Shown here: piece by piece, positions 6,219-61,938 of the stretch
Position numbering within the stretch: the first letter of the stretch is position 1
How the letters are laid out: each line of letters starts with the position of its first letter
Source of the DNA: Candidatus Aenigmatarchaeota archaeon
Lineage (GTDB): Archaea; Aenigmatarchaeota; Aenigmatarchaeia; Aenigmatarchaeales; JACQIB01
Assembly: GCA_043799675.1 (NCBI GenBank)
Contig: JAZDNN010000024.1
Coordinates: forward strand, 7,418 to 71,417
Direction of reading: 5' to 3'
Length of the DNA: 64,000 nt
Notes under the pieces: generated by a model
Told to the model about the DNA's origin: nothing
The model's database searches: none
The model's input: only the letters and a program-made list of their open reading frames with translations
Position numbers and translations under genes: made by a program

Positions 6219-6253
6219 AAGAGATTTAATAGGCCGAGTCTTAAAAGCTTGGC

Positions 6254-10898: not shown

Positions 10899-11151
10899 TG
10901 GTGTCGGGGATGGGGTTTCCAGTGAACTTCGTTCACAGTCAAGCGAACGGAGTTCCGCTTTGAACCCACGACCTCGCGATCTCTCACAGACTCATAGCTC
11001 CGCCGCAAGCGGCAAATTGCTTTTGCCACCTTCGGTGGTTAAGCGAGTCTCAAATCTCATAATCTTGTTATGAGTCGCGCGCTTTTGGTTATCGAATCTA
11101 CCAGGCTTTGCCGGCTGCATGACGCATCATGCGACCATGAGCCACCCCGAC
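10899..11151 (-). tRNA. tRNA(CAU) (elongator Met or Ile2) with four BHB introns
   Basis: 253 nt, with a mature length of 79 nt including CCA.
- Acceptor: GTCGGGG/CCCCGAC.
- D arm: GCTC-AAAGCCTGGTA-GAGC.
- Anticodon stem: CGCGA/TCGCG, loop CUCAUAA.
- T arm: GTGGG-TTCAAAC-CCCAT.
- Intron 1: 11110..11138, 29 nt, D loop after nt 13, central helix UGGC/GCCG.
- Intron 2: 11084..11097, 14 nt, D stem about 22/23, central helix UGGU/ACCA.
- Intron 3: 10981..11068, 88 nt, position 37/38, central helix CUCA/UGAG.
- Intron 4: 10916..10958, 43 nt, T loop 59/60, central helix UUCA/UGGA. Confidence 0.75.
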
Positions 11152-11182: not shown

Positions 11183-11623
11183 TTAGCCAAAGCTCTCGAG
11201 GGGCGGCATTACCCGGGTGTTTCCGTCCCACAGGCCGAAATAGTTCCGGAAGAGCGGGTCATGAACCTTTGGCCTCAGTTTTCCATAATTGGTATGTCTG
11301 AATATCTTTTCGATTGCAGCAGCCTTCGCCGCCCTTTCTTTTATTTTATCCCTGCTGACGTCGAACCCGCAGACGAAGCATTTCAGGTAATAATCCGTCC
11401 CGATGGAATCCTTCCCGGTGAACACCTTCACCATGCCCAGCGGGAATTCCGACGACGGGATGCCCTCGTCCGGCCACCCGTTGGAAGGCTCCGCTTCCAG
11501 CTCGGCGGAAATCGCGTTCTTGACCATGTCGTAAACGATGCCGTTCTTTTCGTGCTTCTTGCCAACGGGCGTCAACGAGCCGCATCTCATGCAGGGGTCC
11601 TTGGTCAGCCAGTACATCAACAT
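11183..11623 (-). CDS. hypothetical zinc-ribbon protein (146 aa)
   Basis: Inner ATG at 11623, because the track ORF start at 11791 runs through tRNA-Lys. It has CMRCG...(N)...CFVCG cysteine pairs. No family recognised. Confidence 0.5.
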   Translation of the reverse strand: MLMYWLTKDPCMRCGSLTPVGKKHEKNGIVYDMVKNAISAELEAEPSNGWPDEGIPSSEFPLGMVKVFTGKDSIGTDYYLKCFVCGFDVSRDKIKERAAKAAAIEKIFRHTNYGKLRPKVHDPLFRNYFGLWDGNTRVMPPLESFG

Positions 11624-11653
11624 CGTTGTGTGAGAAAGGGATAAATCGACGAG

Positions 11654-11850
11654 TGGTGGGCCCAACGGGACTCTCGTAGCACTGCCGCGCTGGCGGCAAA
11701 AGCGCTTTTGGCGCTTCGCGCTCATTCGAACCCGCGACCTACCGGTTTCTCCAGTCACCGAACCAAAATGATGGTTCTCTTTTGGCTCCATTAAGAGCCG
11801 GTCGCTGATGGCTTGGTTTTAACCAATCTACCAGACTGAGCTATGAGCCC
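11654..11850 (-). tRNA. tRNA-Lys(CUU) with three BHB introns
   Basis: 197 nt.
- Acceptor: GGGCTCA/TGGGCCC.
- D arm: GCTC-AGTCTGGTA-GAGC.
- Anticodon stem: ACCGG/CCGGT, loop CUCUUAA.
- T arm: GCGGG-TTCGAAT-CCCGT.
- Intron 1: 11807..11827, 21 nt, D stem about 22/23, central helix UGGU/GCCA, inner hairpin UUGGUU/AACCAA.
- Intron 2: 11747..11791, 45 nt, position 37/38, central helix CUCU/GGAG.
- Intron 3: 11671..11724, 54 nt, position 59/60, central helix UUCG/CGAG.
- CCA is encoded. Confidence 0.85.
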
Positions 11851-13547: not shown

Positions 13548-14774
13548 ATGTACAGTATGAAAAACCCGAATTTGGTTGAGGCGGCCACCAAACCCGATAT
13601 AAGGTTCAACCCGAAGCGCTACACGTATAGTGTAGACCATCATTACTTCAAGATGTGGACGCCTCAAATGGCGTATATTTTAGGGTTCGTGTTTGCGGAC
13701 GGCGGAATAGAAAGGAACAATACGACCCTTGCCTTTGAGTTGCAGATGCGGGATAAAGAGATTTTACGAAAAATAAGAGCGGCTCTAAAATCTACCCATC
13801 CGATTTCAGCGACCAAAGCAGGCGAGTATGTACGATTACGGATCAATAGCCGTCAAATAGTTGACGATTTGAAGAAGCTTGGAGTAACGCATAATAAAAG
13901 CAAAGATTGCACATGTCCAGATATCCCTCAGCGGCTGTTGCCGCACTTCGTGAGAGGGTTCGTGGACGGTGATGGCTGGATTATTCAAAGAACCGGCAAT
14001 AACAGACATGAAATAAGCGCGGGTTTCTGCCATGGTTCTAAGGGGTTCCTTAGATCGCTGGTAAATCAGATTCGAGCGGCGCTTGATATCAAGGCATTTA
14101 ATCTACGGGCTAAGTATAAGGCAACTAGCAGCGGCAAGAGGTCGTGCACATATAGCATAGAATGGTATTCACACAACGCGTCGAAATTTTTAGATTGGAC
14201 ATACAAAGACGCAGACATCTTCTTGAAAAGAAAATACCAAAGCTATCTGAGAAGCAAACGGCTTTTTGAGGAGTTTTCTTCAAAAACGCGGCTTTGGAGA
14301 AAGGTCGAAACCAAACACAGAATGCCGCTAAGAGCCATCCTCGACGGCATGTTGGCCCGGGGTTCGAGCACCTGTCAGATTTCGGGGAATGTCGGAGTTT
14401 CATCGGCTACGATTTACAGGTGGTTAGACAAAACTGACATAAGGAAACCGGTGAAGAGGGTGTCCAAAGCGCCTGTTCTCATGAAGTGCCAGACCTGCGG
14501 TGACATTTTCAGAAAGTTTAAAGAAAACGCCAGCTATTGCTCACTTTCCTGTGCGGCGAAACATATGGCAGTTTCTAGATTGTCTGGGAACAACGTCACG
14601 TGCGCTGCATGCGGTAAACGTGTTTATAGGCCGAACTGGTGGTTTGCGATAAACAGTCGCGCCTTCTGTTCCAATAGTTGTCACGGGAAATGGCAAGAGA
14701 CCCGTTTGGCGACCAATTCGCTGCAACGCTGCAGGACCGATGGCCGCTTCCTTCCTGCTTCAGGGAGGCTATAG
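13548..14774 (+). CDS. free-standing double-motif LAGLIDADG endonuclease-like protein with C-terminal HTH and zinc ribbons
   Basis: 408 aa.
- Two LAGLIDADG motifs (YILGFVFADGG and FVRGFVDGDGW).
- An HTH (QISGNVGVSSATIYRWLDK).
- Two Cys clusters (CQTCG...CSLSC and CAACG...CSNSCHGKW). Confidence 0.7.
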   Translation: MYSMKNPNLVEAATKPDIRFNPKRYTYSVDHHYFKMWTPQMAYILGFVFADGGIERNNTTLAFELQMRDKEILRKIRAALKSTHPISATKAGEYVRLRINSRQIVDDLKKLGVTHNKSKDCTCPDIPQRLLPHFVRGFVDGDGWIIQRTGNNRHEISAGFCHGSKGFLRSLVNQIRAALDIKAFNLRAKYKATSSGKRSCTYSIEWYSHNASKFLDWTYKDADIFLKRKYQSYLRSKRLFEEFSSKTRLWRKVETKHRMPLRAILDGMLARGSSTCQISGNVGVSSATIYRWLDKTDIRKPVKRVSKAPVLMKCQTCGDIFRKFKENASYCSLSCAAKHMAVSRLSGNNVTCAACGKRVYRPNWWFAINSRAFCSNSCHGKWQETRLATNSLQRCRTDGRFLPASGRL

Positions 14775-17688: not shown

Positions 17689-18927
17689 ATGGTTTTAACC
17701 AAGTACGACCGCGGACTGCTGGAAATGATGTACCTGCTCACGAGGAAGCAGAGCCACATGAACCCTTCGGGGGTGGCAAGATACCTTTCCGAGCAGGGCA
17801 TACGGGTGACGGACAGGACAGTGAGGAGATGGTTCAACTACCTCCAGACGCACCGTTTCGACTACTTCCCGTACCCGAAATTCAAGGCGATGGGCCTCAC
17901 TCCCGTGTGGGTTTTCACGGATTTCAACGAAAAAATACTTGAAGCGATTCCACACAAGGTGGCAATAGTAAGCGGATTCGACCTCAGGAACCTCGAGAAA
18001 CGCCTGCTGGGCCTTTACTTGGTTCCGACGGAGCGGCTGAAGGATTTCAGTAAATTGTGGGCGGATGCCGTGGACGCAAAGGCGTTGAGCTTCTGCCAGC
18101 TGCTTGAAGTGGGCTCAATCAACTCCTTCTATTCGCCCTTCCACAAGCTGGTTGACCGTAACGGCATCGCCGACTTCGTGGATGACCACGAGCCGGACAA
18201 TTCCTACTTCACGGACATGCTGCGGAAGAGCACCGGCACGGAAAGCAGTGCCGGGATGAGCCCGCGCATATGCAAAAACCCGCTGATAATCCCGGTAATA
18301 TGGGAATCGTTCAGGAAGAACGCGTCGTCGCAGAAGATATGGAACTCGTTCGAAAGGAGGGCGGGTAAAGCCGCATGGGATTACATAAACAACCCGAAGG
18401 TGAGGAGAGAAAAGAAGACCGGATGCGGGATAAGGCACGTGCAGAACACCATGAGGGAGATGCAGGACAATTTCGGCGAGTTCTTCCAGCAGATGAGAGT
18501 GTCATACAATCCCCTGTACACGCACCACAACAGCATGTTCTATATGCTGCTGAAGCTGAAAAGAAGGGAAGACATCGTGCCGCTCTCGGAACTGCTCTCC
18601 AAACAGGCAATCTCAATCGTGGCGTACCCGCCCAGGGACGCGAAGAGCAGCCTGATGATGTACTACATCCTCACCAATGCCAAGGAAAGCGTCAATATCA
18701 TCAGCGACCTCATACAACCGTACATCGACAAGTCGTTCGACAACAGGATAATCACGGAGGACTTCAAGGGAACGGCGAAATACAGGAACCCGAACATGCG
18801 TCACTGGAAGGAGAACTACATGATGTCCTGCTACCACAAGCTGTTTGACCCCGTGACATGCACGTGGAAGTTCGATACCAAGGCGTACGCCAAAAAGCTG
18901 AACGCTGCCGGCATCAGACAGGGCTGA
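17689..18927 (+). CDS. hypothetical protein with N-terminal winged-helix/HTH
   Basis: Start taken at MVLTKYDRGLLEMMYLL (an alternative ATG lies at 17647). The N-terminal HTH is GVARYLSEQGIRVTDRTVRRWFNYL. The remaining 370 aa or so are unrecognised. Confidence 0.5.
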   Translation: MVLTKYDRGLLEMMYLLTRKQSHMNPSGVARYLSEQGIRVTDRTVRRWFNYLQTHRFDYFPYPKFKAMGLTPVWVFTDFNEKILEAIPHKVAIVSGFDLRNLEKRLLGLYLVPTERLKDFSKLWADAVDAKALSFCQLLEVGSINSFYSPFHKLVDRNGIADFVDDHEPDNSYFTDMLRKSTGTESSAGMSPRICKNPLIIPVIWESFRKNASSQKIWNSFERRAGKAAWDYINNPKVRREKKTGCGIRHVQNTMREMQDNFGEFFQQMRVSYNPLYTHHNSMFYMLLKLKRREDIVPLSELLSKQAISIVAYPPRDAKSSLMMYYILTNAKESVNIISDLIQPYIDKSFDNRIITEDFKGTAKYRNPNMRHWKENYMMSCYHKLFDPVTCTWKFDTKAYAKKLNAAGIRQG

Positions 18928-20335
18928 TGTTCTTCTCCAGCAGCTTGCAGATGAAGACGCGGAAATCCGGAGGAAGTTTTGATAGCATTGTGATAACCGG
19001 GGCACCGCTGGCAACGGTTGATTTCAAAAGGGCAGATGCTATGTGGCTCGGCATTCCTTTGCCCAAAAGAACATGCTCGGGCTGCGCAAAGAACGATTTC
19101 AGGTAATCCAGGGCGACCGTGTGTTCCCTCTCCGTTTCGGTGACCCAGCAGTCCTTCTCTATCCAGCACTTCTTCTCCCTGTAATGCTCCAAAAAGGCCT
19201 TTGCCTGCTTGTGCGACCAGATGGTCGGGCCGACGTGCTTCACCACCCGAGGAACCTGCCACACCTCGAGCTCGAACAGCAGGATGCAATCCTTTCCGTC
19301 CGCCCACACGTCCCTCCTGAGCACGCGGAATCCGCCGTCCGCCAGGAGACCTTCCAGGGAAGCGGAGGCCTTCCGCATCTGCGGCCACAGGGTATCATCC
19401 ACCAGATTCATCGGACGGTCGAACCTGACAAGGTACCAGCGGGTGCGCCTCCTTGCTATGGCTGCAGCCACTTCCTTCACGCTGTACGGCCTGGCGCGGG
19501 GAGGGAAGAACCACTTCTGATGGGGCAACAAAATGAAATCCCTGCACGCCCTGGCAAAAGCAAAGAAGCTGTCTGCCGAGACCGCCGCGGCAACGTTGCG
19601 GTTCGGGTCCACCGGATCTATCACCATCATGGGGGCGCGGAACTTCTCCAAAGCGGCCTGATAATCAACGGCCTTCCGCTCAAGGTCTATCAGGAGGCCT
19701 GCCTCCCATTTCTGCGCCTCGGCCGCGCAGCGGGCAAAACTGCCGTAATGAATGGCAAGCAACTCGCAAAGGTAGCCGGAGAAGCCCTGCGTCTTCACGT
19801 CGGCGCCATAAGCTCCTGCAGCTTTTGCGAAAGCCTTGATGAGCCTCGCGGTGTCGGACAGGTCCGGAGTGAAACGCTTCTTGATATAGGAAACGTGGTG
19901 CGGGGTCCTATCGACCGCGGACTTTATCCTCGACGGATCGGGAACGTCATACGCGGGCACGACGTCTATCGCATAATCCAGCTTTCCCGACTTCATCGAG
20001 CCGCGGAGGTAGGGATGCTCGGCATAGGCTATCTCCCACTTGCCGTTGAGGGTGGAAATTATCTTCTTCGCGAGGTCAAGCCCCTTCTTCTCAAACTCTT
20101 CCCGGCTGACGGCGGGATTGAAAAGCAGGAACAGGTCGAACTCGCGCTTTCCGGCAAGCCAGGTGCCCTTCTCCACCGAGCCGCACATCACGGGCACGGC
20201 CGTGTTTCCCGCTATCTTTGAGGCGACCTGCATCACGGCATTCACGGCCGATTGCATGGCTGACTGGTCGGAAGCGGAGGGGCGTATTTTCTTCAGAACG
20301 GAAGTAAGGACCTTCTCAACCGGCTGCGCTGGCAT
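18914..20335 (-). CDS. cca: class I (archaeal) CCA-adding tRNA nucleotidyltransferase
   Basis: Inner ATG at 20335 gives 473 aa. It has GSVEKGTWLAGKREFDLFLLF (the nucleotidyltransferase G[SG]...D.D motif), EHPYLRG, VDVVPAY and DRTPHHV. Confidence 0.85.
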   Translation of the reverse strand: MPAQPVEKVLTSVLKKIRPSASDQSAMQSAVNAVMQVASKIAGNTAVPVMCGSVEKGTWLAGKREFDLFLLFNPAVSREEFEKKGLDLAKKIISTLNGKWEIAYAEHPYLRGSMKSGKLDYAIDVVPAYDVPDPSRIKSAVDRTPHHVSYIKKRFTPDLSDTARLIKAFAKAAGAYGADVKTQGFSGYLCELLAIHYGSFARCAAEAQKWEAGLLIDLERKAVDYQAALEKFRAPMMVIDPVDPNRNVAAAVSADSFFAFARACRDFILLPHQKWFFPPRARPYSVKEVAAAIARRRTRWYLVRFDRPMNLVDDTLWPQMRKASASLEGLLADGGFRVLRRDVWADGKDCILLFELEVWQVPRVVKHVGPTIWSHKQAKAFLEHYREKKCWIEKDCWVTETEREHTVALDYLKSFFAQPEHVLLGKGMPSHIASALLKSTVASGAPVITMLSKLPPDFRVFICKLLEKNISPV

Positions 20336-20381
20336 ACCTTTAATTGACAGCCTATAAATAAAGGCTAAGGAAAGATTCGGT

Positions 20382-20813
20382 ATGCTGGTCTCGGAAGTGA
20401 TGAACAAGCGGGTCAGGACCTGCCGGAAGGACGACACTGTCCGCCAGGCAGCGCAGGAAATGAACAAGTGGCACATAGGGAGCCTGATCGTGGTGGACGG
20501 CCCGGGAAAGGTCATAGGAATAATAACGGAGAGGGACATCCTGACCGAAGTGGTGGCCAAAGGCCTGCGGAGCGATGACGTGGATGTCAAGGAAATAATG
20601 ACCGGAGACGTGATAGAGGTCGAGTCCAGTGCCACCCTTGAGGATGCGGCCGAGATAATGACACTTAAAAAAATAAAGAAGCTGCCGGTGGTGAGGAAGG
20701 GGCAACTGGTCGGCATCGTGACGGCGACCGACCTGATAATGTACGAGCATTCGCTGATAGAAAAAGTGTCAACCCTGCTGCAGACCGGAAAAAAGGCCGC
20801 TGTGTGCGGCTAA
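20382..20813 (+). CDS. CBS-domain pair protein
   Basis: 143 aa with two CBS motifs (VIGIITERDIL and LVGIVTATDLI). Confidence 0.8.
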   Translation: MLVSEVMNKRVRTCRKDDTVRQAAQEMNKWHIGSLIVVDGPGKVIGIITERDILTEVVAKGLRSDDVDVKEIMTGDVIEVESSATLEDAAEIMTLKKIKKLPVVRKGQLVGIVTATDLIMYEHSLIEKVSTLLQTGKKAAVCG

Positions 20814-47921: not shown

Positions 47922-48353
47922 ATGCCGAAGTTCAGGTTCATTCCCGAGATAGCGATAGCTGATGTAGCCTTCGAAGCGGAAGGTAAGGACATCAATGAGC
48001 TGTTTGTGAACTGCGCCCTTGCAACCGAGGAATCCATGGTCAACACAAAGAAGGTGAAGCCGAAGGTCAGCAAGACCATAAAGCTGGAAGCGGATGCGCT
48101 GGACAGACTGATGATTGACTGGCTGAACGAGGTGATTTACTACAAGGACGCGGAGGGGCTGCTGTTTTGTGAATTCATCGTCAAGGTATTGCAAAAGGGA
48201 AAGAACTGGACGCTTGAAGCCACGGCAAAGGGCGAAAAGAGGGACCCGAAGAAGCACGAGCTCAGGGCGGATGTGAAGGCGGCGACTTGGCACCTTTTTG
48301 AACTGAAGCAGGAAAAGGGCAAGTGGAAAGCGAGGATTGTAGAGGATATCTGA
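47922..48353 (+). CDS. archease (RtcB activator)
   Basis: ATG at 47922 gives 143 aa. It has IADVAFEAEGKDINELF, KAATWHLFEL and the overall length typical of archease. It lies 1.9 kb upstream of rtcB. Confidence 0.75.
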   Translation: MPKFRFIPEIAIADVAFEAEGKDINELFVNCALATEESMVNTKKVKPKVSKTIKLEADALDRLMIDWLNEVIYYKDAEGLLFCEFIVKVLQKGKNWTLEATAKGEKRDPKKHELRADVKAATWHLFELKQEKGKWKARIVEDI

Positions 48354-48362
48354 TTACAACGC

Positions 48363-49196
48363 TTAGCTGCGTATTCCGCGGATTGTCCCTGTCGTGAACA
48401 CATTGTTGCCCTGGTCGACGTAATCTATCCGCACCGACACGCTGTACGGGTCCCCTGCGTTGCCGTTATTTCCCCGGCCGACATACCATGCGCTGTAATC
48501 GGGTTCCAGAGTTGGCGCGTTGATGTTGCTCAATAACGTTCCGTTCAGGGATACCAAGGCAATAGTTATAGCGTAATTGAAATGGGAATTCAGCAGGAGC
48601 ATCCTGAAAGTGCCGTTATGCGAGTAATCTGCATCGATCACGTCTATGCTGCCGAAATCGGATATCATCTTCGGCGTGCATGCCTGCGATTCCTGCGGTT
48701 TTGTATTATTCAGACCGCACGAAGCGGCATCAACACACGTACGCGTCTGCATCGCATTGGCGCCGCAAACCGACCACGCGCTGCACTGCCATACCGGGGC
48801 GCACGTGCATGCATCGCTTTCGGATGGCTTGCCTACGGTCGTCCCGCAGTGGTTCGAATCGCTGCACGTCCTTGTCTGGGTTCCCCCGACGCACAGGGAC
48901 CACGCACCGCAATACCAGTTCGGCGTACAATGGGTCACCTGCGCACAGCCGTTGGTTTCCTCCGGCCTGCCCGTGTTCGTACCGCAGGAGTTCTCATCAA
49001 CGCACGTCCTGGTCTGGACTCCGGAGACCGAGCATGCGCTCCATGCGCCGCACTGCCAGTCCGGCGTGCATACAGCTGGTGTCGGTTCGGGTTCAATCGG
49101 CCTTACAATAAACTGCATGACGAATACCAACGCAAGCGCGATGAGCATCAGGGACAATATCAGGATGACGGCGTTTTTGCTTCCGAATTTCAGCAC
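48363..49196 (-). CDS. membrane-anchored protein with three TSP1-like cysteine repeats (tandem paralog 1)
   Basis: 277 aa. An N-terminal TM anchor is followed by three copies of C-T-P-x-W-x-C-G-A-W-S-x-C-x3-G-x-Q-T-R-T-C-x-D-x-N-x-C-G-x5-P-x-E-x3-C and a beta-rich C-terminal domain. Confidence 0.6.
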   Translation of the reverse strand: MLKFGSKNAVILILSLMLIALALVFVMQFIVRPIEPEPTPAVCTPDWQCGAWSACSVSGVQTRTCVDENSCGTNTGRPEETNGCAQVTHCTPNWYCGAWSLCVGGTQTRTCSDSNHCGTTVGKPSESDACTCAPVWQCSAWSVCGANAMQTRTCVDAASCGLNNTKPQESQACTPKMISDFGSIDVIDADYSHNGTFRMLLLNSHFNYAITIALVSLNGTLLSNINAPTLEPDYSAWYVGRGNNGNAGDPYSVSVRIDYVDQGNNVFTTGTIRGIRS

Positions 49197-49260
49197 AACT
49201 GAAATGGTGATTATCGCTTAATAAAGAAAAATTTCGGCTTTGCTATCTGATTGCAGGCGC

Positions 49261-50127
49261 TTAGCTGCGCTCTCCGGAAACCGTTCCGGTAACTGAAAAC
49301 CCGTTACTGCCGCTATCCAAGTATGTCATCGTTACAGCGAGGGTATATGGATCTCCAACGTGGCCATTCACTCCCATGGTATTTGTGCCTGTCAGCCATA
49401 CCCTTTCCAGAGGGAATAAGTTCATGGGCACGTTCATGGATGGTATTTGTAAACCGTTGACGCTTACAGACGTAATGCTGATGGTATCGCCAACCCTGTC
49501 CTCCACCCACAATTTTAACGTACCATTTGCAGCGTAATCGACATCCAGCACACCTATGTTCGTGAAGCCGCTGATTGTCTTGGGAGTGCAGGTCTGTGAT
49601 TCCTGCGGTTTGCTTGTCGTTGTCCCGCAAGAATTCGTGTCAATGCATGTTCGCATCCGCGTTCCGCCGGCACCGCACGCGGACCATGCATCGCATTGCC
49701 AGTTAGGAGTACATGTACATGGTTGTGTTTCCAAAGGCCTGTCGCTAAACAGATTGCATCTGTTTGCATCCGTGCATACCCTGCTCTGATTTCCCGAATT
49801 ACTGCAATTGGTCCATGCACTGCACTGCCAGTCAGGCACGCAGGGTGGCGTGCAGAACTGGGTTTCAACAGGCTTGTTATAATTCACGCTGCAGGAATTC
49901 GCATCTATGCATGTCCTTGTCTGCGTTCCTGAAGCGGAGCATGCATTCCACGCCCCGCACTGCCAATCAGGCGTGCATACTGGGGGCATCAGAGGCCCAC
50001 TTGGCTTAATCAGGGATTGCACAATATACAACGATGCAAGCGCAACGATTATTACAGCCAGAACCAAGATAATGACGTTTTTCTTTTCGGATTTAGGCAC
50101 ACCTATTTTCTTTTCTGACTTAGGCAC
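49261..50127 (-). CDS. membrane-anchored protein with three TSP1-like cysteine repeats (tandem paralog 2)
   Basis: 288 aa with the same architecture as 48363..49196. The N-terminal PKSEKK is duplicated. Confidence 0.6.
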   Translation of the reverse strand: MPKSEKKIGVPKSEKKNVIILVLAVIIVALASLYIVQSLIKPSGPLMPPVCTPDWQCGAWNACSASGTQTRTCIDANSCSVNYNKPVETQFCTPPCVPDWQCSAWTNCSNSGNQSRVCTDANRCNLFSDRPLETQPCTCTPNWQCDAWSACGAGGTRMRTCIDTNSCGTTTSKPQESQTCTPKTISGFTNIGVLDVDYAANGTLKLWVEDRVGDTISITSVSVNGLQIPSMNVPMNLFPLERVWLTGTNTMGVNGHVGDPYTLAVTMTYLDSGSNGFSVTGTVSGERS

Positions 50128-50180
50128 ACCAAAAATGACTATTACCGCTTAATAAAGATGAATTTTGGCTTTGCTGCTTG

Positions 50181-50188
50181 ATTTATTA
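50181..50188 (+). promoter_or_regulatory. TATA-box-like element upstream of rtcB
   Basis: ATTTATTA lies 23-30 nt upstream of the rtcB ATG (50211), consistent with a leaderless or short-leader transcript. Confidence 0.3.
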
Positions 50189-50210
50189 GCGGCGCAAACG
50201 ATTAGCTGGC

Positions 50211-51795
50211 ATGGAGCAGGAACCTGAAAAGCAGACAGGCAGTCTGCCGAAGGAAATCAAGAAAATCAGCGAGGTCGTCTGGGAACTGCCCACCAGCTAC
50301 AAGAAAGGCATGCGCGTGCCGGCAAGAATATATGCGACCAAGAAGCTGCTCGATGCGATGGACGCGGGAGTGTTCGAGCAGGTCACCAACGTCGCGACCC
50401 TGCCGGGAATCGTCAAGCATGCGTTCTGTATGCCGGATGGGCACTGGGGTATGGGTCAAGTCGCGGCTTGATTCACTCAAATATGGGTTCCCAATCGGCG
50501 GCGTGGCTGCATTCGACCCGAAGGTCGGCGTGATCAGCCCGGGCGGCATCGGGTTCGACATCAACTGCGGCATGAGGTTCGTCACTACCAACCTTACTGT
50601 CAAGGACGTCAAACCCAAGCTGAAAGAACTGGTGGATATCCTGTTCAGGACGGTTCCCGCGGGCGTGGGCGGGGAAGGGTTTGTAAAATTAAGCCGCAGC
50701 CAATTCGACGAAATAATGGTCCAAGGGGCCAATTGGGTCATCGAGCACGGCTACGGTTGGAAAGAGGACACGGAAAGAATAGAGGAGTACGGCTGCATCA
50801 AAGGTGCTGATCCGTCAAAGGTCAGCGACAAGGCAAGGACCAGAGGCATCACGCAGATGGGGACGCTCGGCTCAGGGAACCATTACCTGGAAATCCAGAC
50901 TGCCGAGAAAATTTTCCTTCCCGAAGTCGCAGAGGCATTCGGCGTGAACGAACAGGGGCAGATAGGGGTGATGGTGCACTGCGGCTCGAGGGGGTTCGGC
51001 CACCAAATCGGAACGGATTATCTCAGGATATTCGACATGGCAATGAAGAAGTACAACATCACGGTGCCTGACAGGGAGCTTGCCTGTGCGCCTTTTGCGA
51101 GCCAGGAAGGACAGGATTATTATCACGCGATGGCCTGCGCGGCAAACATGGCTTTTGCCAACAGGCAGGTGATTTTGCACAGGATACGCGAGGCTTTTGC
51201 AAAGGTGTTCAGGAAATCCCCCGAAGACATGGAAATGCACCTGGTGTACGATGTCGCGCACAACGTGGCCAAGGTGGAGAAACACCTGGTCGACGGTCAT
51301 GAAAAGGAACTGGTGATGCACCGGAAGGGGAGCACGCGCTGCTTCGGTCCGGGTAGGCCGGAGATTCCTGAAGCTTACCGCAAGGTCGGCCAGCCGGTGA
51401 TTGTGGGCGGCAGCATGGAAACGGGCAGCTTTTTGTGCGTGGGCACGGACAAGGCTCTGACAGAAACATGGGGAAGCACCATGCACGGCGCGGGCAGAAC
51501 CATGAGCAGGACTTCAGCGAGGAACCAGGGCTCGGGCTTGGCGTTGCAGAAGAAGATGGCCAAGGAAGGGATACTGGTGGAAGCCACGAGCATGAGCGGG
51601 CTTGCAGAGGAAGCGGGCTTTGCCTACAAGGACCTGAACGAAGTGGTCGAGACCATGGAAATCGCGGGCGTGAGCAGGAAGGTCGTTCTGCTGAGGCCTT
51701 TGGGTAATATTAAAGGCACCGCCCGGGCCTCATACAGCCTTTTAGCTTTCCCCATACTTGTCATGGTCTTGGCCTTGATTTCGTCCCTTATCTGA
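50211..51795 (+). CDS. rtcB: RNA-splicing ligase RtcB, coding sequence interrupted by a 31-nt BHB intron (exon 1 50211..50450, exon 2 50482..51795)
   Basis: - Exon 1 (80 aa) ends ...LPGIVKHAFCMPDGHWG.
- Exon 2, in another frame, starts YGFPIGGVAAFD...GGIGFDINCGMR, and HCGSRGFGHQ and further motifs follow.
- Joining at 50450/50482 recreates the universal MPD.H.GYGF.IGG motif.
- Unspliced, the first frame stops at 50469-50471 after 86 aa.
- The C-terminus carries a hydrophobic extension of about 25 aa after the usual ...IKG end. Confidence 0.85.
50451..50481 (+). other. predicted bulge-helix-bulge (BHB) intron within the rtcB mRNA
   Basis: - Central helix: UGGG (50445-48) / CUCA (50476-79).
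- Bulges: GUA (50449-51) and AAU (50480-82), each 3 nt.
- Inner helix: 9 bp, UGGGUCAAG/CUUGAUUCA, with loop UCGCGG.
- Cleavage after the 2nd bulge nucleotide on each side removes exactly the 31 nt needed to restore the frame. Confidence 0.75.
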
Positions 51796-52859
51796 ACGAT
51801 AAGCGGTTCGACCTGTTTCCACCTCGTGATGTTCTTGCCGATTATTTCGAGAATCAATTCCTTTTTGGCCGTTTTCTCGGGATGCCTCAACGGCAGCAAT
51901 TCGAGCATCCGACGGACATCGGCCTTCCTGAAGATTTCTAAGGCGAAATAATCCTTGCTGTATCTTATACTGACCCCATGAGTGTCTCTGCCGTCCCCGC
52001 GCCTGAAAATCCTGTATAGAATTGGATTAAAGCCCTGTTCCCTTAGTTGCCGTTTTATCCTACCAAGCAAGGTTTTATTTTCGGTGCCTATCCGCATACA
52101 ACACTGCAAATTTTCCCTGATTTTCTTGACCAGAAGCGACCCTTCCGCATCGAAGTAGCCGGCCAGGAACGACAGGAAAACATTCCGTTCGGATTCGACC
52201 AACTCTGAAATCAATCGTTTCCTGTTTTCCAGCAAGAGGAAGTCGAAGCTGTTGTCGAGGTCTGCGGATGTCGTCCACATGTAATTTCCAAAAGTTCTGT
52301 TCTTCGCAGGATATGTCCTTACCTTCGCATATCCTTTGAACAGGCTCTCGAAGACATCCAGGAATCCTTCATGAGTCGTGTTGGTTATGGCCCGAATGGT
52401 ATGCTTCGATCTTCTGAAGGCTGTCACATCACCCTCCACGAAACCAACCATGTAAGCCTTTTCTTCATCCTTTCCATCAAAACTTTGCCGTTCATGTTTC
52501 CTGTTTGTCAGCAGGATAGCCTCATCGTTTCCACGCACCCGAAAGCCGTTTTCTTCCAGCACCTTATGCAACGTGCCTTTGGAAGAACCAAATTTCTTGG
52601 CCAGCTTTTTCAACGATATTTTCTCCGTGTCATAAAGTCTCAGAATTTCCGTCACAGGCAGGTGTTTCCTGTGAGACAACGAATGTGCCTGACTGAGATT
52701 CCTTATCGGTATGTCAAGTTTGATGAACCGTTTTCTTACGGCCGACCACGATATATCGTCTCCGAGCTTAACACTCAATATCGCCGCCACTTCTTTGAAC
52801 GTCTTACCGGACGAATAGAGACTCTCGGCTTCCTTCAGGAGTTCGCTGTTCAGCTTCAT
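51624..52859 (-). CDS. LAGLIDADG endonuclease-like protein with N-terminal HTH domains
   Basis: 411 aa. There are two N-terminal HTH-like segments (GKTFKEVAAIL and ISLKKLAKKFGSSKGTLHKVL), then LAGLIDADG motifs (YMVGFVEGDVT and FLSFLAGYFDAEGS). It lies directly downstream of the DGR RT. Its last 172 nt overlap the 3' end of rtcB on the opposite strand. Confidence 0.65.
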   Translation of the reverse strand: MKLNSELLKEAESLYSSGKTFKEVAAILSVKLGDDISWSAVRKRFIKLDIPIRNLSQAHSLSHRKHLPVTEILRLYDTEKISLKKLAKKFGSSKGTLHKVLEENGFRVRGNDEAILLTNRKHERQSFDGKDEEKAYMVGFVEGDVTAFRRSKHTIRAITNTTHEGFLDVFESLFKGYAKVRTYPAKNRTFGNYMWTTSADLDNSFDFLLLENRKRLISELVESERNVFLSFLAGYFDAEGSLLVKKIRENLQCCMRIGTENKTLLGRIKRQLREQGFNPILYRIFRRGDGRDTHGVSIRYSKDYFALEIFRKADVRRMLELLPLRHPEKTAKKELILEIIGKNITRWKQVEPLIVQIRDEIKAKTMTSMGKAKRLYEARAVPLILPKGLSRTTFLLTPAISMVSTTSFRSL

Positions 52860-52914
52860 GGTCGTCTATTATATCCCGTTAGGCACTATAAATTGATATA
52901 TATTCTCGAGCACA

Positions 52915-53991
52915 CTAATCATGCAGAATACATCCAAAAATATTATTATACCTTCCAGCGAGCGCATTTCTCAACCTGAACGTGTCGCCCTGCGCCGCAT
53001 AGGCCATCCAGCCCTCAAGGCTTTTCGCAGCCTGTTCTGCCGAAATCTCACCGGATTCGTACTGCAGTCTGAGTGCCGTCATCCTTTTTTCGAGCTTCAG
53101 CAGGTTCCTCCTTTTTGGAATCCTGTAGTGGTAGAACACCCTGAAGCCGAGCAACGATATCCCCTTATGCAAAGGGTAGACCTGCGATTTTTCCTCATGC
53201 AACTCTAGCTTTAACCGTTGTTTGAGGAACCCGTTTATCCCGCTCCTGAACTGCATCAGCGCGGCCTCAGACCTGTCCAGAATCACGAAGTCATCTACAT
53301 ACCGGAGATAGAACCTTGCCTTAAGCACGTGCTTCACGAAATGGTCCAGCTCATTCAGGTAGACGTTCGCGAAGAACTGGCTCGTCTGATTGCCTATCGG
53401 CATCCCCTTCGGCAGGGCAGGGTCGTTGTTCGACAGGATTTTCCGTACCAGCCAGAGCACGCTTTCGTCCCTTATTTTTCTCCGTATGATGCCAATCAGG
53501 ACATCGTGGTCGACGCTCGGGAAATAGTGCCTTATGTCGGCCTTCAGTGCATAGCCGACCACCATGTTGTTGTCCTTCGCGCCGTGCACCAAACGGCCGT
53601 TCCCGGAAACCTTTCGCTTGAAGCAATCAAACCTGTCCAATGCTGCCAGGCCGCCCTTTCCCTTCCTGTTGGCGTAGCTGTCGTGGATGAACGTTTTGTC
53701 GAAAATCGGTTCGAGCACGTTGCATAACGCATGATGGACAACACGGTCCCTGAAATGCGAGGCATGAATTACCCGTGTCTTGGGGTCGCGGATGATGAAC
53801 CGTTTCAACGGGCGCGGCGAATACGTACGATTTTCAAGCTCAGTTTTCAAATCTGCCAATTCGCCATCAAGATTAGCTTCGAATCTTTTGACATACCATT
53901 TCTTCGACTTGCCCTTCCTCGCCTTTCTGAATGCCAGCAAAAGGTTCTCTGGCGAGCAGACCTTTCCGTAAAGGTTGTCAAATGTTTTCAA
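52915..53991 (-). CDS. DGR-type reverse transcriptase
   Basis: 358 aa with an apparent TTG start. RT motifs 1-7 include RVIHASHFRDRVVHHAL, the DGR-diagnostic PIGNQTSQFFANVYLNELD (I/LGxxxSQ) and the catalytic YLRYVDDFVIL. It has no maturase or endonuclease domains, and it sits 30 nt downstream of the TR. Confidence 0.85.
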   Translation of the reverse strand: MKTFDNLYGKVCSPENLLLAFRKARKGKSKKWYVKRFEANLDGELADLKTELENRTYSPRPLKRFIIRDPKTRVIHASHFRDRVVHHALCNVLEPIFDKTFIHDSYANRKGKGGLAALDRFDCFKRKVSGNGRLVHGAKDNNMVVGYALKADIRHYFPSVDHDVLIGIIRRKIRDESVLWLVRKILSNNDPALPKGMPIGNQTSQFFANVYLNELDHFVKHVLKARFYLRYVDDFVILDRSEAALMQFRSGINGFLKQRLKLELHEEKSQVYPLHKGISLLGFRVFYHYRIPKRRNLLKLEKRMTALRLQYESGEISAEQAAKSLEGWMAYAAQGDTFRLRNALAGRYNNIFGCILHD

Positions 53992-54040
53992 AAATATCCC
54001 CTATCGGCGGCCCGTGCTATTGGCGCAGACCCCGTTGTCA

Positions 54041-54073
54041 TTCAGGCTTCCCGCCAAAAGGCAATGAGGAAGT
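54041..54073 (-). other. TR intron 3 (33 nt, predicted BHB)
   Basis: Sense-strand layout: CAGG | AAA | CUUCC-UCAUU-GCC-UUUU-GGC-G-GGAAG | CCUG | AAU. That is a perfect 4-bp central helix CAGG/CCUG, 3-nt bulges and a 5-bp inner helix. Confidence 0.75.
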
Positions 54074-54098
54074 TTCCTGTTCGAGGGCCTGTTCGCAT

Positions 54099-54129
54099 TT
54101 ATGCCGGCGGAACGTTTCCTTCCAACCGT
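54099..54129 (-). other. TR intron 2 (31 nt, predicted BHB)
   Basis: Sense-strand layout: AUGC | GAA | CGGU...GCCG | GCAU | AAA. That is a perfect 4-bp central helix AUGC/GCAU, 3-nt bulges, and an inner helix CGGU/GCCG enclosing a GGAA-ACG-UUCC hairpin. Confidence 0.7.
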
Positions 54130-54145
54130 TCGCATTGAAGCACCC

Positions 54146-54162
54146 TTGACGGCCCGAAGGCT
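54146..54162 (-). other. TR intron 1 (17 nt, predicted BHB)
   Basis: Sense-strand layout: GACG | AGA | GCC-UUCG-GGC | CGUC | AAG. That is a 4-bp central helix GACG/CGUC, 3-nt bulges, and an inner GCC/GGC helix with a UUCG loop. Confidence 0.7.
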
Positions 54163-54436
54163 CTCGTCCGTGTTCCAATCCGACCTGACGGAAGGGTTTC
54201 GGTAGCCTCTCCACCGACATGACACCGCGGCTTCAATCTTCGGGAACCTACCAACTGAAACCGCTGAATTTAATGGCACAAGCATTCGGACGGCATGAAA
54301 TGCCATCGCACCATCTTGCGCTCTATGGAAAGGCGTATAGCGCGGGCCTTTGCCGGGAGAATGAAATACCCGCCCCCCGATTGGGAAGGAAAGAACTCTG
54401 TCATGCAAAAATTGAGGGACGAAACGATTTATGCGC

Positions 54437-55183
54437 CTATTTTGAGGTCTTAACCGCTTTTTTTGCGGCGCAGACCCCGAGGTCATGCCTGAGCGAGGGC
54501 CCGCCCGCATCCGCATCGAAGCACCCCCCGTCGGAGTGCCAAGTCGACCTGACGGAAGCCACTTCAACCGGGATTAAGGCTTCTGTTTCGATTTCTACTA
54601 TATCCAGTTTGTTGTCTTTCATCCTGTAAGAAGCCGCTTTCTGTTTGGCCAGCTTTTGGATGACCTCAAGATTATGATTCCAGTAATCGTCCATCGTTGC
54701 CTTGTATTCCTTGTCGGAATTCATCAGTTCAGCCGACTCCTGTGCCTTGAAGTGTCTTACTCCAAAGTCCAGCTTGAACTCCTCGGGTATTCTCTGATAG
54801 ACCAGTTCCTGGATTATCCTGTCCGCATTGGCGATGAACCCTTTGCGTTTATAGTCCCTGAACTTTCCTGCGTCCCCTTTGGCCATCAGGAGCGCATAGC
54901 CTTTCTTTTCAAGGTCCTTTTCCAGCCTCTTTCCGTCAATTATGGCCAATATTTCATCGACCTCTCCCAACCTTTCTTTTACAGAAAAATCATCATCAAA
55001 TATTACAGAGCCATTGTAAGCGGCCAGCTTCGAATCATACGCGCCTGCTGCACGCAGATAATCGAGAACACAGCCTTCAACAGTTACAGGCACGGCTTTT
55101 CCCGTGAACCTGAATTCCCCGTCGATAATCCTCACTTCAGGCTCGGGCATCACGACCGTTGTTATTTTGCTCATGATAATCAT
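54437..55183 (-). CDS. DGR target protein B (VR near C-terminus)
   Basis: 248 aa. The C-terminal ...SVRSTWHSDGGCFDADAGGPSLRHDLGVCAAKK is encoded by VR-B. The N-terminal 200 aa are unrelated to targets C and D. No signal peptide is seen. Confidence 0.7.
   Translation of the reverse strand: MIIMSKITTVVMPEPEVRIIDGEFRFTGKAVPVTVEGCVLDYLRAAGAYDSKLAAYNGSVIFDDDFSVKERLGEVDEILAIIDGKRLEKDLEKKGYALLMAKGDAGKFRDYKRKGFIANADRIIQELVYQRIPEEFKLDFGVRHFKAQESAELMNSDKEYKATMDDYWNHNLEVIQKLAKQKAASYRMKDNKLDIVEIETEALIPVEVASVRSTWHSDGGCFDADAGGPSLRHDLGVCAAKKAVKTSK
54467..54558 (-). repeat. DGR variable repeat VR-B (92 nt)
   Basis: Colinear with the spliced TR. There are 16 differences, 14 at TR adenines and 2 at G positions. 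Confidence 0.75.
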
Positions 55184-55186: not shown

Positions 55187-55912
55187 TCAGAAGTGCTTCT
55201 TCACGACTTCGAGGTCTTTCATCAAAGCGTCATATTTCTTTGACTTTTCCAGAAGCTCCCGGTATTCGCTCTCCGCGACCTCGCACATCTTCGGAAGCTC
55301 GGCCTTCTCGTCCGTTTTAAGGAGGGCGCAGACCCCGTCGTCAGCCCAGTGCGAGGGCCTGCCCGCAGTCGCATTGAAGCACCCCTCGCCCGTGGTCCAA
55401 GCCGACCTGACGGAAGCTTCACCGTTTTCAAACGAGATGCTTCCCCTCCAGACCTTCTTTTTCGGTTTCTTGAACAGCCCGGCATTCACGAGTGTATCAA
55501 AGACGTCCGATTTGCTTATCCCGGCCCTTGTTCTTTTGCCGTCATATTTGAGTTCACCGTTCACTTCCTTCACGACGGGGTCGGCTATTATCTCGCCCTT
55601 CTCAAGGGCGACTTCCCTGTTGTGCAACCAATAATCAATATTCATTTTCTTGAACGACTTGTCCTCGTGCACCAAATCGTAAGAAACCTGCAACGGCAGG
55701 AGCGTGTAGCGCTCGCCGACCTTCTTTGATACTTCCTGACCGAGAAGCGTCATCTGCCTGTGGTCGAGGTTCGCCACGAGGCCATTGCCTTTGTAGTCGT
55801 TGTGCCCTTCGGCAGGACTTCCCTTCCATTTCGGGAAATACACCGTTTCCTTGCCCGTGGGCGGCACTATCTTTCCCGCTATCTCATGGACGATTTCGGC
55901 CTGTGTTACCAT
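55187..55912 (-). CDS. DGR target protein C
   Basis: 241 aa and a paralog of target D (shared ...GKETVYFPKWKGSP.EG.ND...VGERY..LP.Q.SYDLVH.D.SFKKM). VR-C encodes SVRSAWTTGEGCFNATAGRPSHWADDGVCA, followed by a helical tail of about 40 aa. Confidence 0.7.
   Translation of the reverse strand: MVTQAEIVHEIAGKIVPPTGKETVYFPKWKGSPAEGHNDYKGNGLVANLDHRQMTLLGQEVSKKVGERYTLLPLQVSYDLVHEDKSFKKMNIDYWLHNREVALEKGEIIADPVVKEVNGELKYDGKRTRAGISKSDVFDTLVNAGLFKKPKKKVWRGSISFENGEASVRSAWTTGEGCFNATAGRPSHWADDGVCALLKTDEKAELPKMCEVAESEYRELLEKSKKYDALMKDLEVVKKHF
55326..55417 (-). repeat. DGR variable repeat VR-C (92 nt)
   Basis: Colinear with the spliced TR. There are 11 differences, all at TR adenines (11 of 22 A positions changed, 0 of 70 non-A positions). 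Confidence 0.8.
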
Positions 55913-55972: not shown

Positions 55973-56695
55973 TCAATCGCCGCATTCGTCCAAAGCCGCT
56001 TTCCTAAAATCCAACGATTTAGGAGGGTCCTTCAGAAACTGTTGATATTCGCTCTCCGCAATCTTGCGCACCTTCGGCTTCTCAACGGCCTTGCCCGTTT
56101 TCACGAAGGCGACAACCCCGCGGTCAGGCCCGGAGGAGGGCCAAGACGCACCCACAGCGAAGCACCCAAAACGGTTTCCCGACTTGACGGAAGAAATGCC
56201 GTCATTCTCGTAAATGATGCCCCAATCACAGACGTTGTGATTGAGCTGCTTGAACAGTTTTGCGCTGGCAAGCGTCTTTATCACGGACTCTGCGTCAATG
56301 TTCGCCTTTACGCTCCTGCAACCATCATTGAGCCTGAGCTCGCCGTCGACTTCGCTGACAATCGGGACGGAAATAACATCCCCGTTTCTCCGTATGACTT
56401 CCCTGTTGATTATCTTATAATCGGCCATCATTTTCTTGAAACTTCTGTCATTATGCACCAAATCATAACTCGTCTGAAACGGAAGTTCGGCATAACGCTC
56501 GCCCACTTTCTCGGATATCATCTGACCCAAGAACACGGACTGCCACTTATCGAGAGTCGCAACAAAACCCTTACCGTAACGATCGTTGCGTCCTTCTATC
56601 GGACTTCCCTTCCACTTCGGAAAATACGCCGTTTCCTTGCCGGTAGGCATCCTAATCTTGTCCAAAATTTCATAGACGATTTCAGCTTCACCCAT
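55973..56695 (-). CDS. DGR target protein D (degenerate VR)
   Basis: 240 aa and a paralog of target C. The VR-like segment encodes SVKSGNRFGCFAVGASWPSSGPDRGVVA. Confidence 0.65.
   Translation of the reverse strand: MGEAEIVYEILDKIRMPTGKETAYFPKWKGSPIEGRNDRYGKGFVATLDKWQSVFLGQMISEKVGERYAELPFQTSYDLVHNDRSFKKMMADYKIINREVIRRNGDVISVPIVSEVDGELRLNDGCRSVKANIDAESVIKTLASAKLFKQLNHNVCDWGIIYENDGISSVKSGNRFGCFAVGASWPSSGPDRGVVAFVKTGKAVEKPKVRKIAESEYQQFLKDPPKSLDFRKAALDECGD
56108..56193 (-). repeat. DGR variable repeat VR-D (86 nt, diverged)
   Basis: Alignable to the spliced TR, but with a 6-nt deletion, several non-adenine differences and a diverged 3' boundary (GGGGTTGTCGCC against GGGGTCTGCGCC). It is probably no longer a homing target. 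Confidence 0.55.
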
Positions 56696-60846: not shown

Positions 60847-61938
60847 TTATAACAATAATTTCTTCAGTTCCTCGTAGCCTGCATCCGTCTTTATCGCCGT
60901 GCAATCGAAATGGGTGCGGACAGCCAGCCTTCCGCTTTCATGCAACCTGAGCATCACATCTTCCGTGCCCTTTGCGGGCACCTTGAGCTTCGAAGCCAGA
61001 ACGTGCAGGTCCCAGTAGAAGGGAGGGGCATCAGCCTCTTCCATAATCTGGGAAAGCATCTTCGCCTCTGCCGGTTTTTGTTTGAAGTCCCTGCCTTTGA
61101 TATCATCGAGGACTTCATTGACGAATACCTTGTCCTGTATCGGACCCAGATAGATGGGGCCGGCGAACTGCCAGTTTTCAATGGGTTGTGAACCTGTGCG
61201 ATATTCGCCTGTCTTTGGATTGTAACTCACGAATTTGAACTTCTTCAGCAGACCTTCTATCTCGCCTGCATGCCCGATCCTTCCGTAGCAACGGAAATAA
61301 TGGCGCGTGGAATGGGAAAGCACCGGAACAAAAGCCCTGTCCCGGCGGGCGAACGTGAGGATTATGAACGAAACGAGGGTCCTCAGTCCCAATTCGGAAT
61401 AGAACGGCGCGCCCTTGAAGGTGACGATGCCGTACTTGCGGAAACAGGCGGCCGGGGCGGAGCCGCTCAGCGGGGCGGTGTCGGTGGCAGTGACGGCCAC
61501 GAAGCCCTTGTGCCAGACGCTGCGTGCAGCACCATCCAGGAAAAGATTGGGGGAACCGAACGGGTCGATGTCGATGAAATCGAACAGACGGTCATGGAAC
61601 AGCCTGTTCGCATCAACACAGGACGTCCTGCATCTTTTCTGAAGTTTGTTGAGCGTGATGTTCTTTTTGATTACTTTGACCGCGAACGGGTTCTTGTCGT
61701 TCAGCACTACCTCCTTCAGTCCTTCGACTTCGGCTGCATAGCGGAGGCCGCGCATCCCGGCGGCTGCCAATGCGTCACAGACCGTGAGCTTCTGCCTGCT
61801 GATTCTCTGCCAGGTCTGAAGGACGGAAATCGAGATGTCGCGCTGGAACTCGGCCGCGGGATTGTAGAACGCGCCCTTGCCGAGCGCAGGGGAGGCCCAG
61901 ACTTCGACCTTCCCTTCCCGGACTTTCTCAACACTCAT
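60847..61938 (-). CDS. trm1: tRNA (guanine26-N2)-dimethyltransferase Trm1
   Basis: 363 aa. Motifs are FYNP..EF.RD, DALAA.G.RGLRYA.E, IDIDPFGSP..FLD.A and TATD.A.L. Confidence 0.85.
   Translation of the reverse strand: MSVEKVREGKVEVWASPALGKGAFYNPAAEFQRDISISVLQTWQRISRQKLTVCDALAAAGMRGLRYAAEVEGLKEVVLNDKNPFAVKVIKKNITLNKLQKRCRTSCVDANRLFHDRLFDFIDIDPFGSPNLFLDGAARSVWHKGFVAVTATDTAPLSGSAPAACFRKYGIVTFKGAPFYSELGLRTLVSFIILTFARRDRAFVPVLSHSTRHYFRCYGRIGHAGEIEGLLKKFKFVSYNPKTGEYRTGSQPIENWQFAGPIYLGPIQDKVFVNEVLDDIKGRDFKQKPAEAKMLSQIMEEADAPPFYWDLHVLASKLKVPAKGTEDVMLRLHESGRLAVRTHFDCTAIKTDAGYEELKKLLL

Follow-up and report, generated by a model that had tools for sequence, protein, structure and literature searches.

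Introduction

Does the archaeal tRNA-splicing pathway also act on the mRNA of its own ligase and on the template RNA of a diversity-generating retroelement (DGR)? This question is raised by a 64-kb window (the whole stretch of DNA that was analysed, from contig JAZDNN010000024.1) of an uncultured DPANN archaeon, Candidatus Aenigmatarchaeota, in which 16 short insertions of 12-88 nt lie in five tRNA genes (12 insertions), in the ligase gene rtcB (one) and in the template repeat (TR) of a DGR (three). A sequence-only reading of this DNA had counted 16 predicted introns of the bulge-helix-bulge (BHB) type, distributed in the same way, and all 16 insertions exist. The archaeal nature of the window is evident from Pfam matches to the ribosomal proteins S19e, S8e and S26e, to TFB and geranylgeranyl reductase, and to an archaeal-type CCA-adding enzyme, RtcB and archease. 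Nearly all known BHB introns lie in tRNA or rRNA, and the rtcB and TR cases would widen the range of substrates of archaeal protein-dependent splicing. The novelty lies in these two proposed substrates, the mRNA of the ligase itself and the template of a DGR; the tRNA part is of a known type. If true, this would be the first natural intron-containing DGR template.

Results

A common geometry of the insertion sites

A BHB motif consists of an outer helix, a 4-bp central helix, 3-nt bulges and a further outer helix, and is cut after the second bulge nucleotide. Once the junction is known, the four exon nucleotides and the four intron nucleotides that have to pair with each other are thus determined. 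Splicing was performed in silico throughout, with junctions fixed independently of the motif by tRNA structure, by reading frame or by alignment to the variable repeats (VRs) of the DGR, and sequence-equivalent registers alone were allowed in the BHB test. The central helix between the two 3-nt bulges is fully paired at 14 of the 16 sites and paired at three of four positions at the other two, both in tRNA-Trp. For random site pairs with the same lengths and register counts, the chance expectation is 0.78 fully paired sites, and the probability of finding at least 14 is about 2e-17. The bulges are A-rich.

The strict hBHBh' motif, in which both flanking helices abut the bulges, occurs at about 2-3 of the 16 sites, namely at position 37/38 of tRNA-Met, in TR intron 2 and, marginally, at 37/38 of tRNA-Trp. 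The 37/38 sites of tRNA-Gly, tRNA-Thr and tRNA-Lys are hBH motifs without the intron helix; HBh' motifs, without the exon-exon helix, are found at the D-arm sites, in rtcB and in TR introns 1 and 3. At the 59/60 sites the T-stem forms the outer helix, whereas one or two mismatches set the intron helix off from the bulge. Most of the 16 motifs belong to the relaxed class (hBH/HBh'). For the rtcB and TR introns, strong inner and weak outer helices had been predicted, and this is what the geometry gives: 4/4 central pairs and 3-10 bp within the intron, with 0-2 exon-exon pairs adjacent to the central helix.

Additional mRNA introns may be present in the window. A scan for BHB candidates that would fuse two open frames gave 718 on the plus strand, compared with about 350-385 per strand in reversed sequence, and was too noisy at 54% GC.

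The interrupted rtcB gene

On the plus strand, rtcB consists of exon 1 (50211..50450, 80 codons, ending in ...CMPDGHWG), a 31-nt HBh'-type predicted BHB intron (50451..50481) and exon 2 (50482..51795). Unspliced, the frame stops at 50469-50471 and gives an 86-aa product, and a second frame resumes with YGFPIGGVAAFD. In-silico splicing joins GHWG to YGFPIGG and yields one Pfam PF01139 match that covers profile positions 1-426 of 426 (E=5e-171). The central helix (50445-48/50476-79, UGGG/CUCA) has 4/4 pairs, and its 3' bulge reads AA/U, the slash marking the junction. Within the intron, a 9-bp helix (50452-60/50467-75) closes a small loop, with a possible tenth G-U pair (50461/50466). The exon-exon helix is almost absent.

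Close relatives carry the gene with and without the insertion. Spliced RtcB is 95% identical, without gaps over 492 aa, to the protein P0121, whose DNA (L020/L021) precisely lacks the insert and reads through (tgg gga tac gga ttt). Two other relatives, P0008 (94% identical) and P0011 (91%), have RtcB gene calls that are truncated N-terminally, and their contigs, L001 and L002, encode the missing part upstream as an RtcB fragment of 81-83 aa and are interrupted at the same codon by a 32-nt insert. MAG (metagenome-assembled genome) contigs can hold errors, but inserts at the same sites in independent assemblies (JGI, NCBI, ENA) argue against an artefact, and the strong conservation of the exons, with RtcB 91-95% identical in relatives, argues against a dead gene. 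Among the three interrupted rtcB sequences a 6-bp intron helix is kept despite changes on both sides at most positions (TGGGTC/GATTCA, ATAGGG/CCCTGT and ACTTGC/GCAAGT). A scan of GTDB representatives for relatives gave none above 71% identity, and a JGI metagenome scan for further relatives returned L021 alone, which was already known.

The short direct repeat TATGGG flanks the rtcB insert (at 50450 and 50482) and would be compatible with removal at the level of translation. Translational bypassing, in which the ribosome hops over a stretch of mRNA as it does in T4 gene 60, was rejected as a candidate for rtcB: L001 and L002 are without matching take-off and landing codons and without a flanking repeat.

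The 3' end of rtcB has been altered by a neighbouring insertion, which would also fit a decaying gene. RtcB homology extends to 51717 (...NIKG), P0121 ends at NIKG and homology to L020 stops at 51716; the stop codon is lost, and the last 25 codons are an extension antisense to a LAGLIDADG ORF. The inserted block (51717..52960) lies between rtcB and the reverse transcriptase (RT) gene of the DGR, where L020 has 63 bp, and holds a 411-aa HTH and LAGLIDADG_3 ORF (51624..52859, minus strand). The insertion is also present in L001, and is absent from L002 and L020. A second LAGLIDADG_3 and HTH ORF of 408 aa (13548..14774, plus strand) adjoins the S8e gene, and the two ORFs may be paralogous.

A DGR template repeat that is not colinear with its variable repeats

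The DGR lies on the minus strand in the order target gene 2 (55187..55912, with VR2 at its 3' end, 55325..55417), target gene 1 (54437..55183, with VR1 at its 3' end, 54467..54559), an RT-16 RNA, the TR (54022..54194) and the RT gene (52915..53991; Pfam RVT_1; NCBI MFH0829935.1). The assignment as a DGR is based on the RT gene, on the two VRs at the 3' ends of target genes and on the position of 25 of 27 TR/VR mismatches at TR adenines. In the DNA, the TR of 173 nt is not colinear with the VRs of 92-93 nt: three or four matching blocks are split by 17, 31 and 33 extra nt (54146..54162, 54099..54129 and 54041..54073, introns 1 to 3), and ungapped repeat matching recovered the TR merely as three separate fragments. 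The three central helices, GACG/CGUC, AUGC/GCAU and CAGG/CCUG, are all 4/4 Watson-Crick paired in the required register, and each is accompanied by 3-nt bulges and an internal helix. At 17 nt, TR intron 1 is minimal, its 3-bp stem being capped by a UUCG loop. The spliced TR of 92 nt can be aligned to both VRs without a gap: it differs from VR1 at 16 positions, 14 of them TR adenines, and from VR2 at 11, every one of them a TR adenine.

The relative L020 has about 80% DNA identity across the DGR region and the same three TR introns, together with its intron-free rtcB. The TR exons of the two are nearly identical; the loop of intron 1 changes from UUCG to GCAA, and compensatory changes are found in the helices of introns 2 and 3. 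The VR of L020 differs from its own spliced TR at 17 positions, 16 of them adenines. Because L020 has the same three introns and an adenine-specific VR, the TR introns predate the split of the two lineages, and homing from the spliced form appears to have continued since. These observations speak against an inactive DGR whose TR gained junk after the last homing: the intron helices have undergone compensatory change while the exons stayed nearly identical, and the two VRs have diverged at positions that are adenines in the TR, though the TR introns are older than the split from L020. Differences in length between TR and VR occur in about 7% of DGRs and have been ascribed to RT slippage (PMC5758913). 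The inserts described here are instead hairpin structures, each with 3-nt bulges and a 4-bp central helix free of mismatches, and are not AAC-adjacent slips. An IMG/VR scan with the DGR RT returned one distant DGR (L045) with the usual uninterrupted 120-nt TR and VR.

The RT-16 RNA, which directly precedes the TR on its 5' side, was detected by Rfam (54197..54373, minus strand) with 57.2 bits, a value above the gathering score, and its region is conserved in L020 apart from a variable middle part. A third paralogue of the DGR target proteins is encoded just upstream of target gene 2 (55973..56695, minus strand), without a VR that matches the TR.

Five interrupted tRNA genes

ARAGORN and Rfam called tRNA-Thr as the single tRNA of the window; Rfam added a weak sub-threshold 'tmRNA' match, which is the interrupted tRNA-Trp gene. 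Other tRNA genes were sought by a scan for 7-bp acceptor stems closed by N-CCA together with direct reading, and this gave four further genes on the minus strand (Gly, Trp, Met and Lys), each of 164-253 nt owing to its insertions. All five tRNA genes within the window are interrupted, at one site in Thr, two in Gly, two in Trp, three in Lys and four in Met (12 in sum). The spliced versions of all five are called by ARAGORN as intron-free cloverleaf tRNAs with the expected anticodons.

The gene of tRNA-Gly(TCC) (4224..4400, minus strand, as for the other four) contains a 46-nt intron at 37/38 (4319..4364, hBH) and a 57-nt intron at 59/60 (4241..4297). That of tRNA-Trp(CCA) (5883..6046) has a 29-nt D-loop intron (6003..6031, HBh', central helix 3/4, 8-bp intron helix) and a 57-nt intron at 37/38 (5921..5977, central helix 3/4), and that of tRNA-Thr(TGT) (6131..6218) a single 12-nt intron at 37/38 (6170..6181, hBH). 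The four introns of tRNA-Met(CAT) (10899..11151) are located after nt 13 (11110..11138, 29 nt), at 22/23 (11084..11097, 14 nt), at 37/38 (10981..11068, 88 nt, strict hBHBh') and at 59/60 (10916..10958, 43 nt). The three of tRNA-Lys(CTT) (11654..11850) are at 22/23 (11807..11827, 21 nt), 37/38 (11747..11791, 45 nt) and 59/60 (11671..11724, 54 nt). Every one of the five genes is thus interrupted at 37/38. Gly, Met and Lys have an intron at 59/60 as well, and Met and Lys one at 22/23; sites in the 5' part of the D-loop occur after nt 13 in Met and after nt 13-17 in Trp, with the best register after nt 15. The non-canonical sites that the sequence-only reading had proposed (after nt 13, at about 22/23 and at 59/60) are borne out by these structural positions in Met, Lys and Gly.

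The 59/60 introns of tRNA-Gly (57 nt) and tRNA-Lys (54 nt) match at 45 aligned positions, about 79-83%. This likeness points to a duplication or transposition of introns between tRNA genes, as is described for Thermoproteales.

The single tRNA-Met(CAT) gene carries four introns; the commonly cited maximum is three introns per tRNA gene. The 3'-terminal CCA is encoded in all five genes (3' ends at 4224, 5883, 6131, 10899 and 11654), despite a CCA-adding enzyme gene in the same window. The tRNA-Trp intron at 37/38 contains a C-box-like GTGATGA and the motif CTGGAGC, a 7-nt antisense match to GCTCCAG of the anticodon-loop region. These features recall the box C/D guide that haloarchaeal tRNA-Trp introns harbour, but no clear D box (CTGA) was seen in this intron. 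Long ORFs overlap the interrupted tRNA genes (4281..5027 and 5393..6022 on the plus strand, 6032..6787 and 11183..11791 on the minus strand), and 4281..5027, the sole one of the four that was scanned, has no Pfam match. In all likelihood these ORFs are spurious; as long as the tRNA genes are overlooked, they could enter annotations as hypothetical proteins.

Genes of RNA maturation in the window

RtcB and archease, which both belong to the splicing pathway, are encoded in the window. The archease gene (47922..48353, plus strand; Pfam PF01951, E=7e-39) starts with ATG at 47922 in an ORF that is open from 47862. From its end to the start of rtcB at 50211 are 1.86 kb on the same strand, in agreement with the predicted distance of about 1.9 kb. 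Two genes on the opposite strand (48363..50127) separate archease from rtcB in the window; archease directly adjoins rtcB in L001, and one gene lies between them in L002. The arrangement therefore resembles the known conserved archease-rtcB pairing and seems to have been loosened by insertions. The two intervening genes (48363..49196 and 49261..50127, both minus strand) encode paralogous Cys-rich proteins of 277 aa and 288 aa with an N-terminal hydrophobic segment, three CxPxWxCxxWxxC...C repeats and no Pfam match. The archease-rtcB interval of the relatives contains no gene (L001) or one gene (L002, L020), and the gene in L020 is homologous to the Cys-rich genes of the window.

An archaeal class I CCA-adding enzyme is encoded at 18914..20716 (minus strand; 600-aa ORF; Pfam PF09249, PF21133 and PF01909), the place of 18.9 kb at which it had been reported. 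About 170 residues of this ORF lie N-terminal to the first Pfam domain, and these may be a genuine extension of the protein, or else reflect a misplaced start or a concealed interruption. Trm1 is encoded at 60847..61938. The CCA enzyme is a tRNA maturation enzyme and no splicing factor, and the tRNA genes are about 38-46 kb away from rtcB. The idea that the introns stand "next to the splicing toolkit" thus has no demonstrated meaning, archease-rtcB being a conserved synteny; that the tRNA genes share a window with archease, rtcB and the CCA enzyme is a matter of normal synteny or of chance and has no part in the mechanism.

Discussion

A probable single splicing mechanism for 16 insertions

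The insertions, their exact junctions, the BHB geometry, the restoration of the products, and the conservation and covariation in relatives are established from the DNA. With high confidence, we interpret all 16 insertions as archaeal protein-spliced BHB introns that are served by one mechanism, cleavage by the endonuclease EndA and ligation by RtcB with archease. In this model, the exon-intron boundaries of the transcript would fold into a BHB or a relaxed hBH/HBh' motif, EndA would cut after the second nucleotide of each 3-nt bulge, and RtcB with archease would join the 2',3'-cyclic-phosphate and 5'-OH ends. Splicing would restore the cloverleaf of the tRNAs and the reading frame of rtcB, and the DGR template RNA would be spliced before reverse transcription, by which the VRs would inherit an intron-free sequence. 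If the rtcB intron is spliced, the making of the ligase would depend on pre-existing ligase, a self-referential loop in which new ligase is made only where ligase already exists. A regulatory use of the rtcB intron is speculation.

Several observations weigh against this interpretation. Its main weakness is that splicing at all 16 sites is deduced from DNA alone; cleavage, ligation, the type of EndA and any regulatory meaning of the rtcB intron we infer. Both tRNA-Trp sites carry one mismatch in the central helix. A context-free scan of the window for the BHB motif gave 547 matches at fairly strict settings; since such a scan is swamped by chance matches and the motif by itself is uninformative, the intron calls are founded on context. 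When the rtcB and TR regions were folded at minimum free energy (MFE), z was about -0.8 to -1 and the central helix lay outside the MFE structure, which supports neither view. The rtcB central helix of L001 and L002 has 2/4 pairs in the register required by the frame and the splice site is shifted by 1 nt, so that the motif is very relaxed there. The comparative support comes from few sequences, three for rtcB and two for the TR. Finally, as had been anticipated, no endonuclease gene was found in the window: Pfam detected no EndA among about 60 window ORFs, and phmmer and hmmsearch at maximum sensitivity, with five EndA sequences including that of M. jannaschii (checked against PDB 1A79), gave a best E=2.4 among 836 six-frame ORFs.

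Alternative explanations

The alternative that survives best holds that the introns are real but ordinary, that their high density is the normal state of the lineage, as in Thermoproteales and ARMAN, and that archease, rtcB and the CCA enzyme are neighbours by coincidence. Multi-intron tRNAs with introns at 22/23 and 59/60 and homologous introns in different tRNAs are known, the latter from Thermoproteales (PMC4090602), and the Gly and Lys introns at 59/60, with about 80% identity at their aligned positions, are of this kind. Disrupted tRNA genes are also reported to be common in DPANN (PMC5829648), and the synteny of archease and rtcB is conserved. We accept this explanation for the tRNA genes and for the supposed toolkit. 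It leaves the rtcB mRNA intron and the three TR introns uncovered, and the distant DGR relative L045 has an uninterrupted TR; as an account of all 16 sites we consider it possible, though rather improbable. A full-text literature search, whose coverage was incomplete, gave no report of an intron in rtcB and none that links DGRs with BHB introns.

The insertions might also be removed or skipped without EndA and RtcB, by translational bypassing in rtcB, by template jumping or slippage of the RT between TR and VR, or by another RNase and ligase. The flanking repeat of the rtcB insert and the TR/VR length differences ascribed elsewhere to RT slippage would fit such routes. The geometry is, on the other hand, common to the 12 tRNA introns, for which EndA splicing is the established route, and one mechanism covers all 16 sites, which makes a set of separate routes very unlikely. 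Least probable of all, and hardly tenable, is that the insertions stay in the RNA as pseudogenes, assembly or sequencing artefacts or decaying elements, as this would require all five tRNA genes of the region to be dead and the BHB register to fit by accident at 14 of 16 sites.

Consequences for the endonuclease

Most motifs are without one flanking helix, and if they are spliced by EndA and RtcB, the host EndA must tolerate relaxed substrates. Efficient cleavage of relaxed hBH/HBh' motifs has been assigned to broad-specificity EndAs (PMC6379350), so that the proposal of a relaxed-specificity endonuclease in this host is a reasonable inference. Such broad specificity is described for (alpha-beta)2 enzymes with L1/CSL, for epsilon2 enzymes with L2/ASL and for DPANN alpha4 enzymes with L3, the specificity loop containing a conserved Lys (PMC6379350, PMC5829648). 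The sequence-only reading had named a genome that encodes only a homotetrameric endonuclease as an argument against relaxed specificity. For DPANN this argument is not valid: alpha4 EndAs that bear the L3 loop are reported from several lineages with heavily disrupted tRNA genes, and the subunit type was concluded to contribute least to substrate recognition by EndA (Kaneta et al., 2018; PMC5829648). A full-text search with incomplete coverage found no literature description of tRNA introns or of the EndA type in Aenigmatarchaeota. The window offers a defined test of the link between the specificity loops of EndA and the spread of introns in DPANN.

Possible consequences for genome annotation and RNA function

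Of the five tRNA genes in the window, four escape standard tools; gene callers split rtcB into two products, and DGR detection that assumes colinearity of TR and VR could miss a TR of this type. As a result, figures for genome completeness, tRNA complements and DGR censuses in DPANN may be too low. It is tempting to speculate further that in this lineage of Aenigmatarchaeota RNA function in general is gated by the tRNA-splicing pathway. The DGR would diversify only from a thrice-spliced template and the ligase mRNA would need the ligase, by which RtcB supply, tRNA maturation and DGR activity would be tied together. We lean slightly towards this wider view.

Comparison with known systems

Multi-intron tRNA genes have been described in Thermoproteales, Nanoarchaeota and ARMAN (Marck & Grosjean, 2003; Sugahara, 2008; Fujishima, 2010/2011; as reviewed in PMC4090602 and PMC6379350). 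The tRNA genes of the window resemble these systems in having several BHB or relaxed introns per gene, at 37/38 and at non-canonical sites (22/23, 59/60). Near-identical introns in different tRNA genes, which suggest transposition, are a further common trait, represented here by the 59/60 introns of Gly and Lys with about 80% identity. The window differs in its lineage, Aenigmatarchaeota, in the four introns of tRNA-Met and in the interruption of all five of its tRNA genes. The archease-RtcB 'tRNA splicing operon' (Desai et al., 2014, as cited in PMC4090602) also has its likeness here, with archease upstream of rtcB on the same strand and adjacent to it in L001; unlike the operon as cited, the window has 1.86 kb with two opposite-strand genes for Cys-rich proteins between them.

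For mRNA, the closest parallel is the cbf5 pre-mRNA of Desulfurococcales and Sulfolobales, which carries a BHB intron (Watanabe, 2002; Yoshinari, 2006; PMC2738675, PMC6379350) and by 2009 was the only mRNA of archaea for which such an intron had been confirmed (PMC2738675). Like the cbf5 intron, the predicted rtcB intron is short and of BHB type, lies in the gene of an RNA-processing enzyme, is present or absent among close relatives and gives rise to split or truncated gene calls. In contrast to cbf5, rtcB encodes the ligase of the same pathway, so that its expression would need its own product; the host belongs to DPANN and not to Crenarchaeota, and the exon-exon helix is essentially absent. 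An analogy is also found in the unconventional cytoplasmic splicing of HAC1/XBP1 mRNA, which is sealed by tRNA ligase or RtcB (PMC4090602, PMC3400036): tRNA-type cuts at stem-loops, together with joining by a tRNA ligase, bring an mRNA back into frame. There the endonuclease is IRE1 and the process is eukaryotic and stress-regulated; EndA is proposed here, and nothing in the window shows regulation.

The TR introns would be natural counterparts of the engineered TR intron that was used to show the RNA intermediate in DGR homing. In the DGR of Bordetella phage BPP-1, a td group I intron placed in the TR is spliced out before cDNA synthesis (PMC5703328). Removal before reverse transcription, with only the ligated exons reaching cDNA and VR, would be common to both systems. 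The td intron of BPP-1 is artificial and self-splicing, whereas the DGR of the window has three natural introns that would depend on host proteins and that are kept in a relative at about 80% DNA identity.

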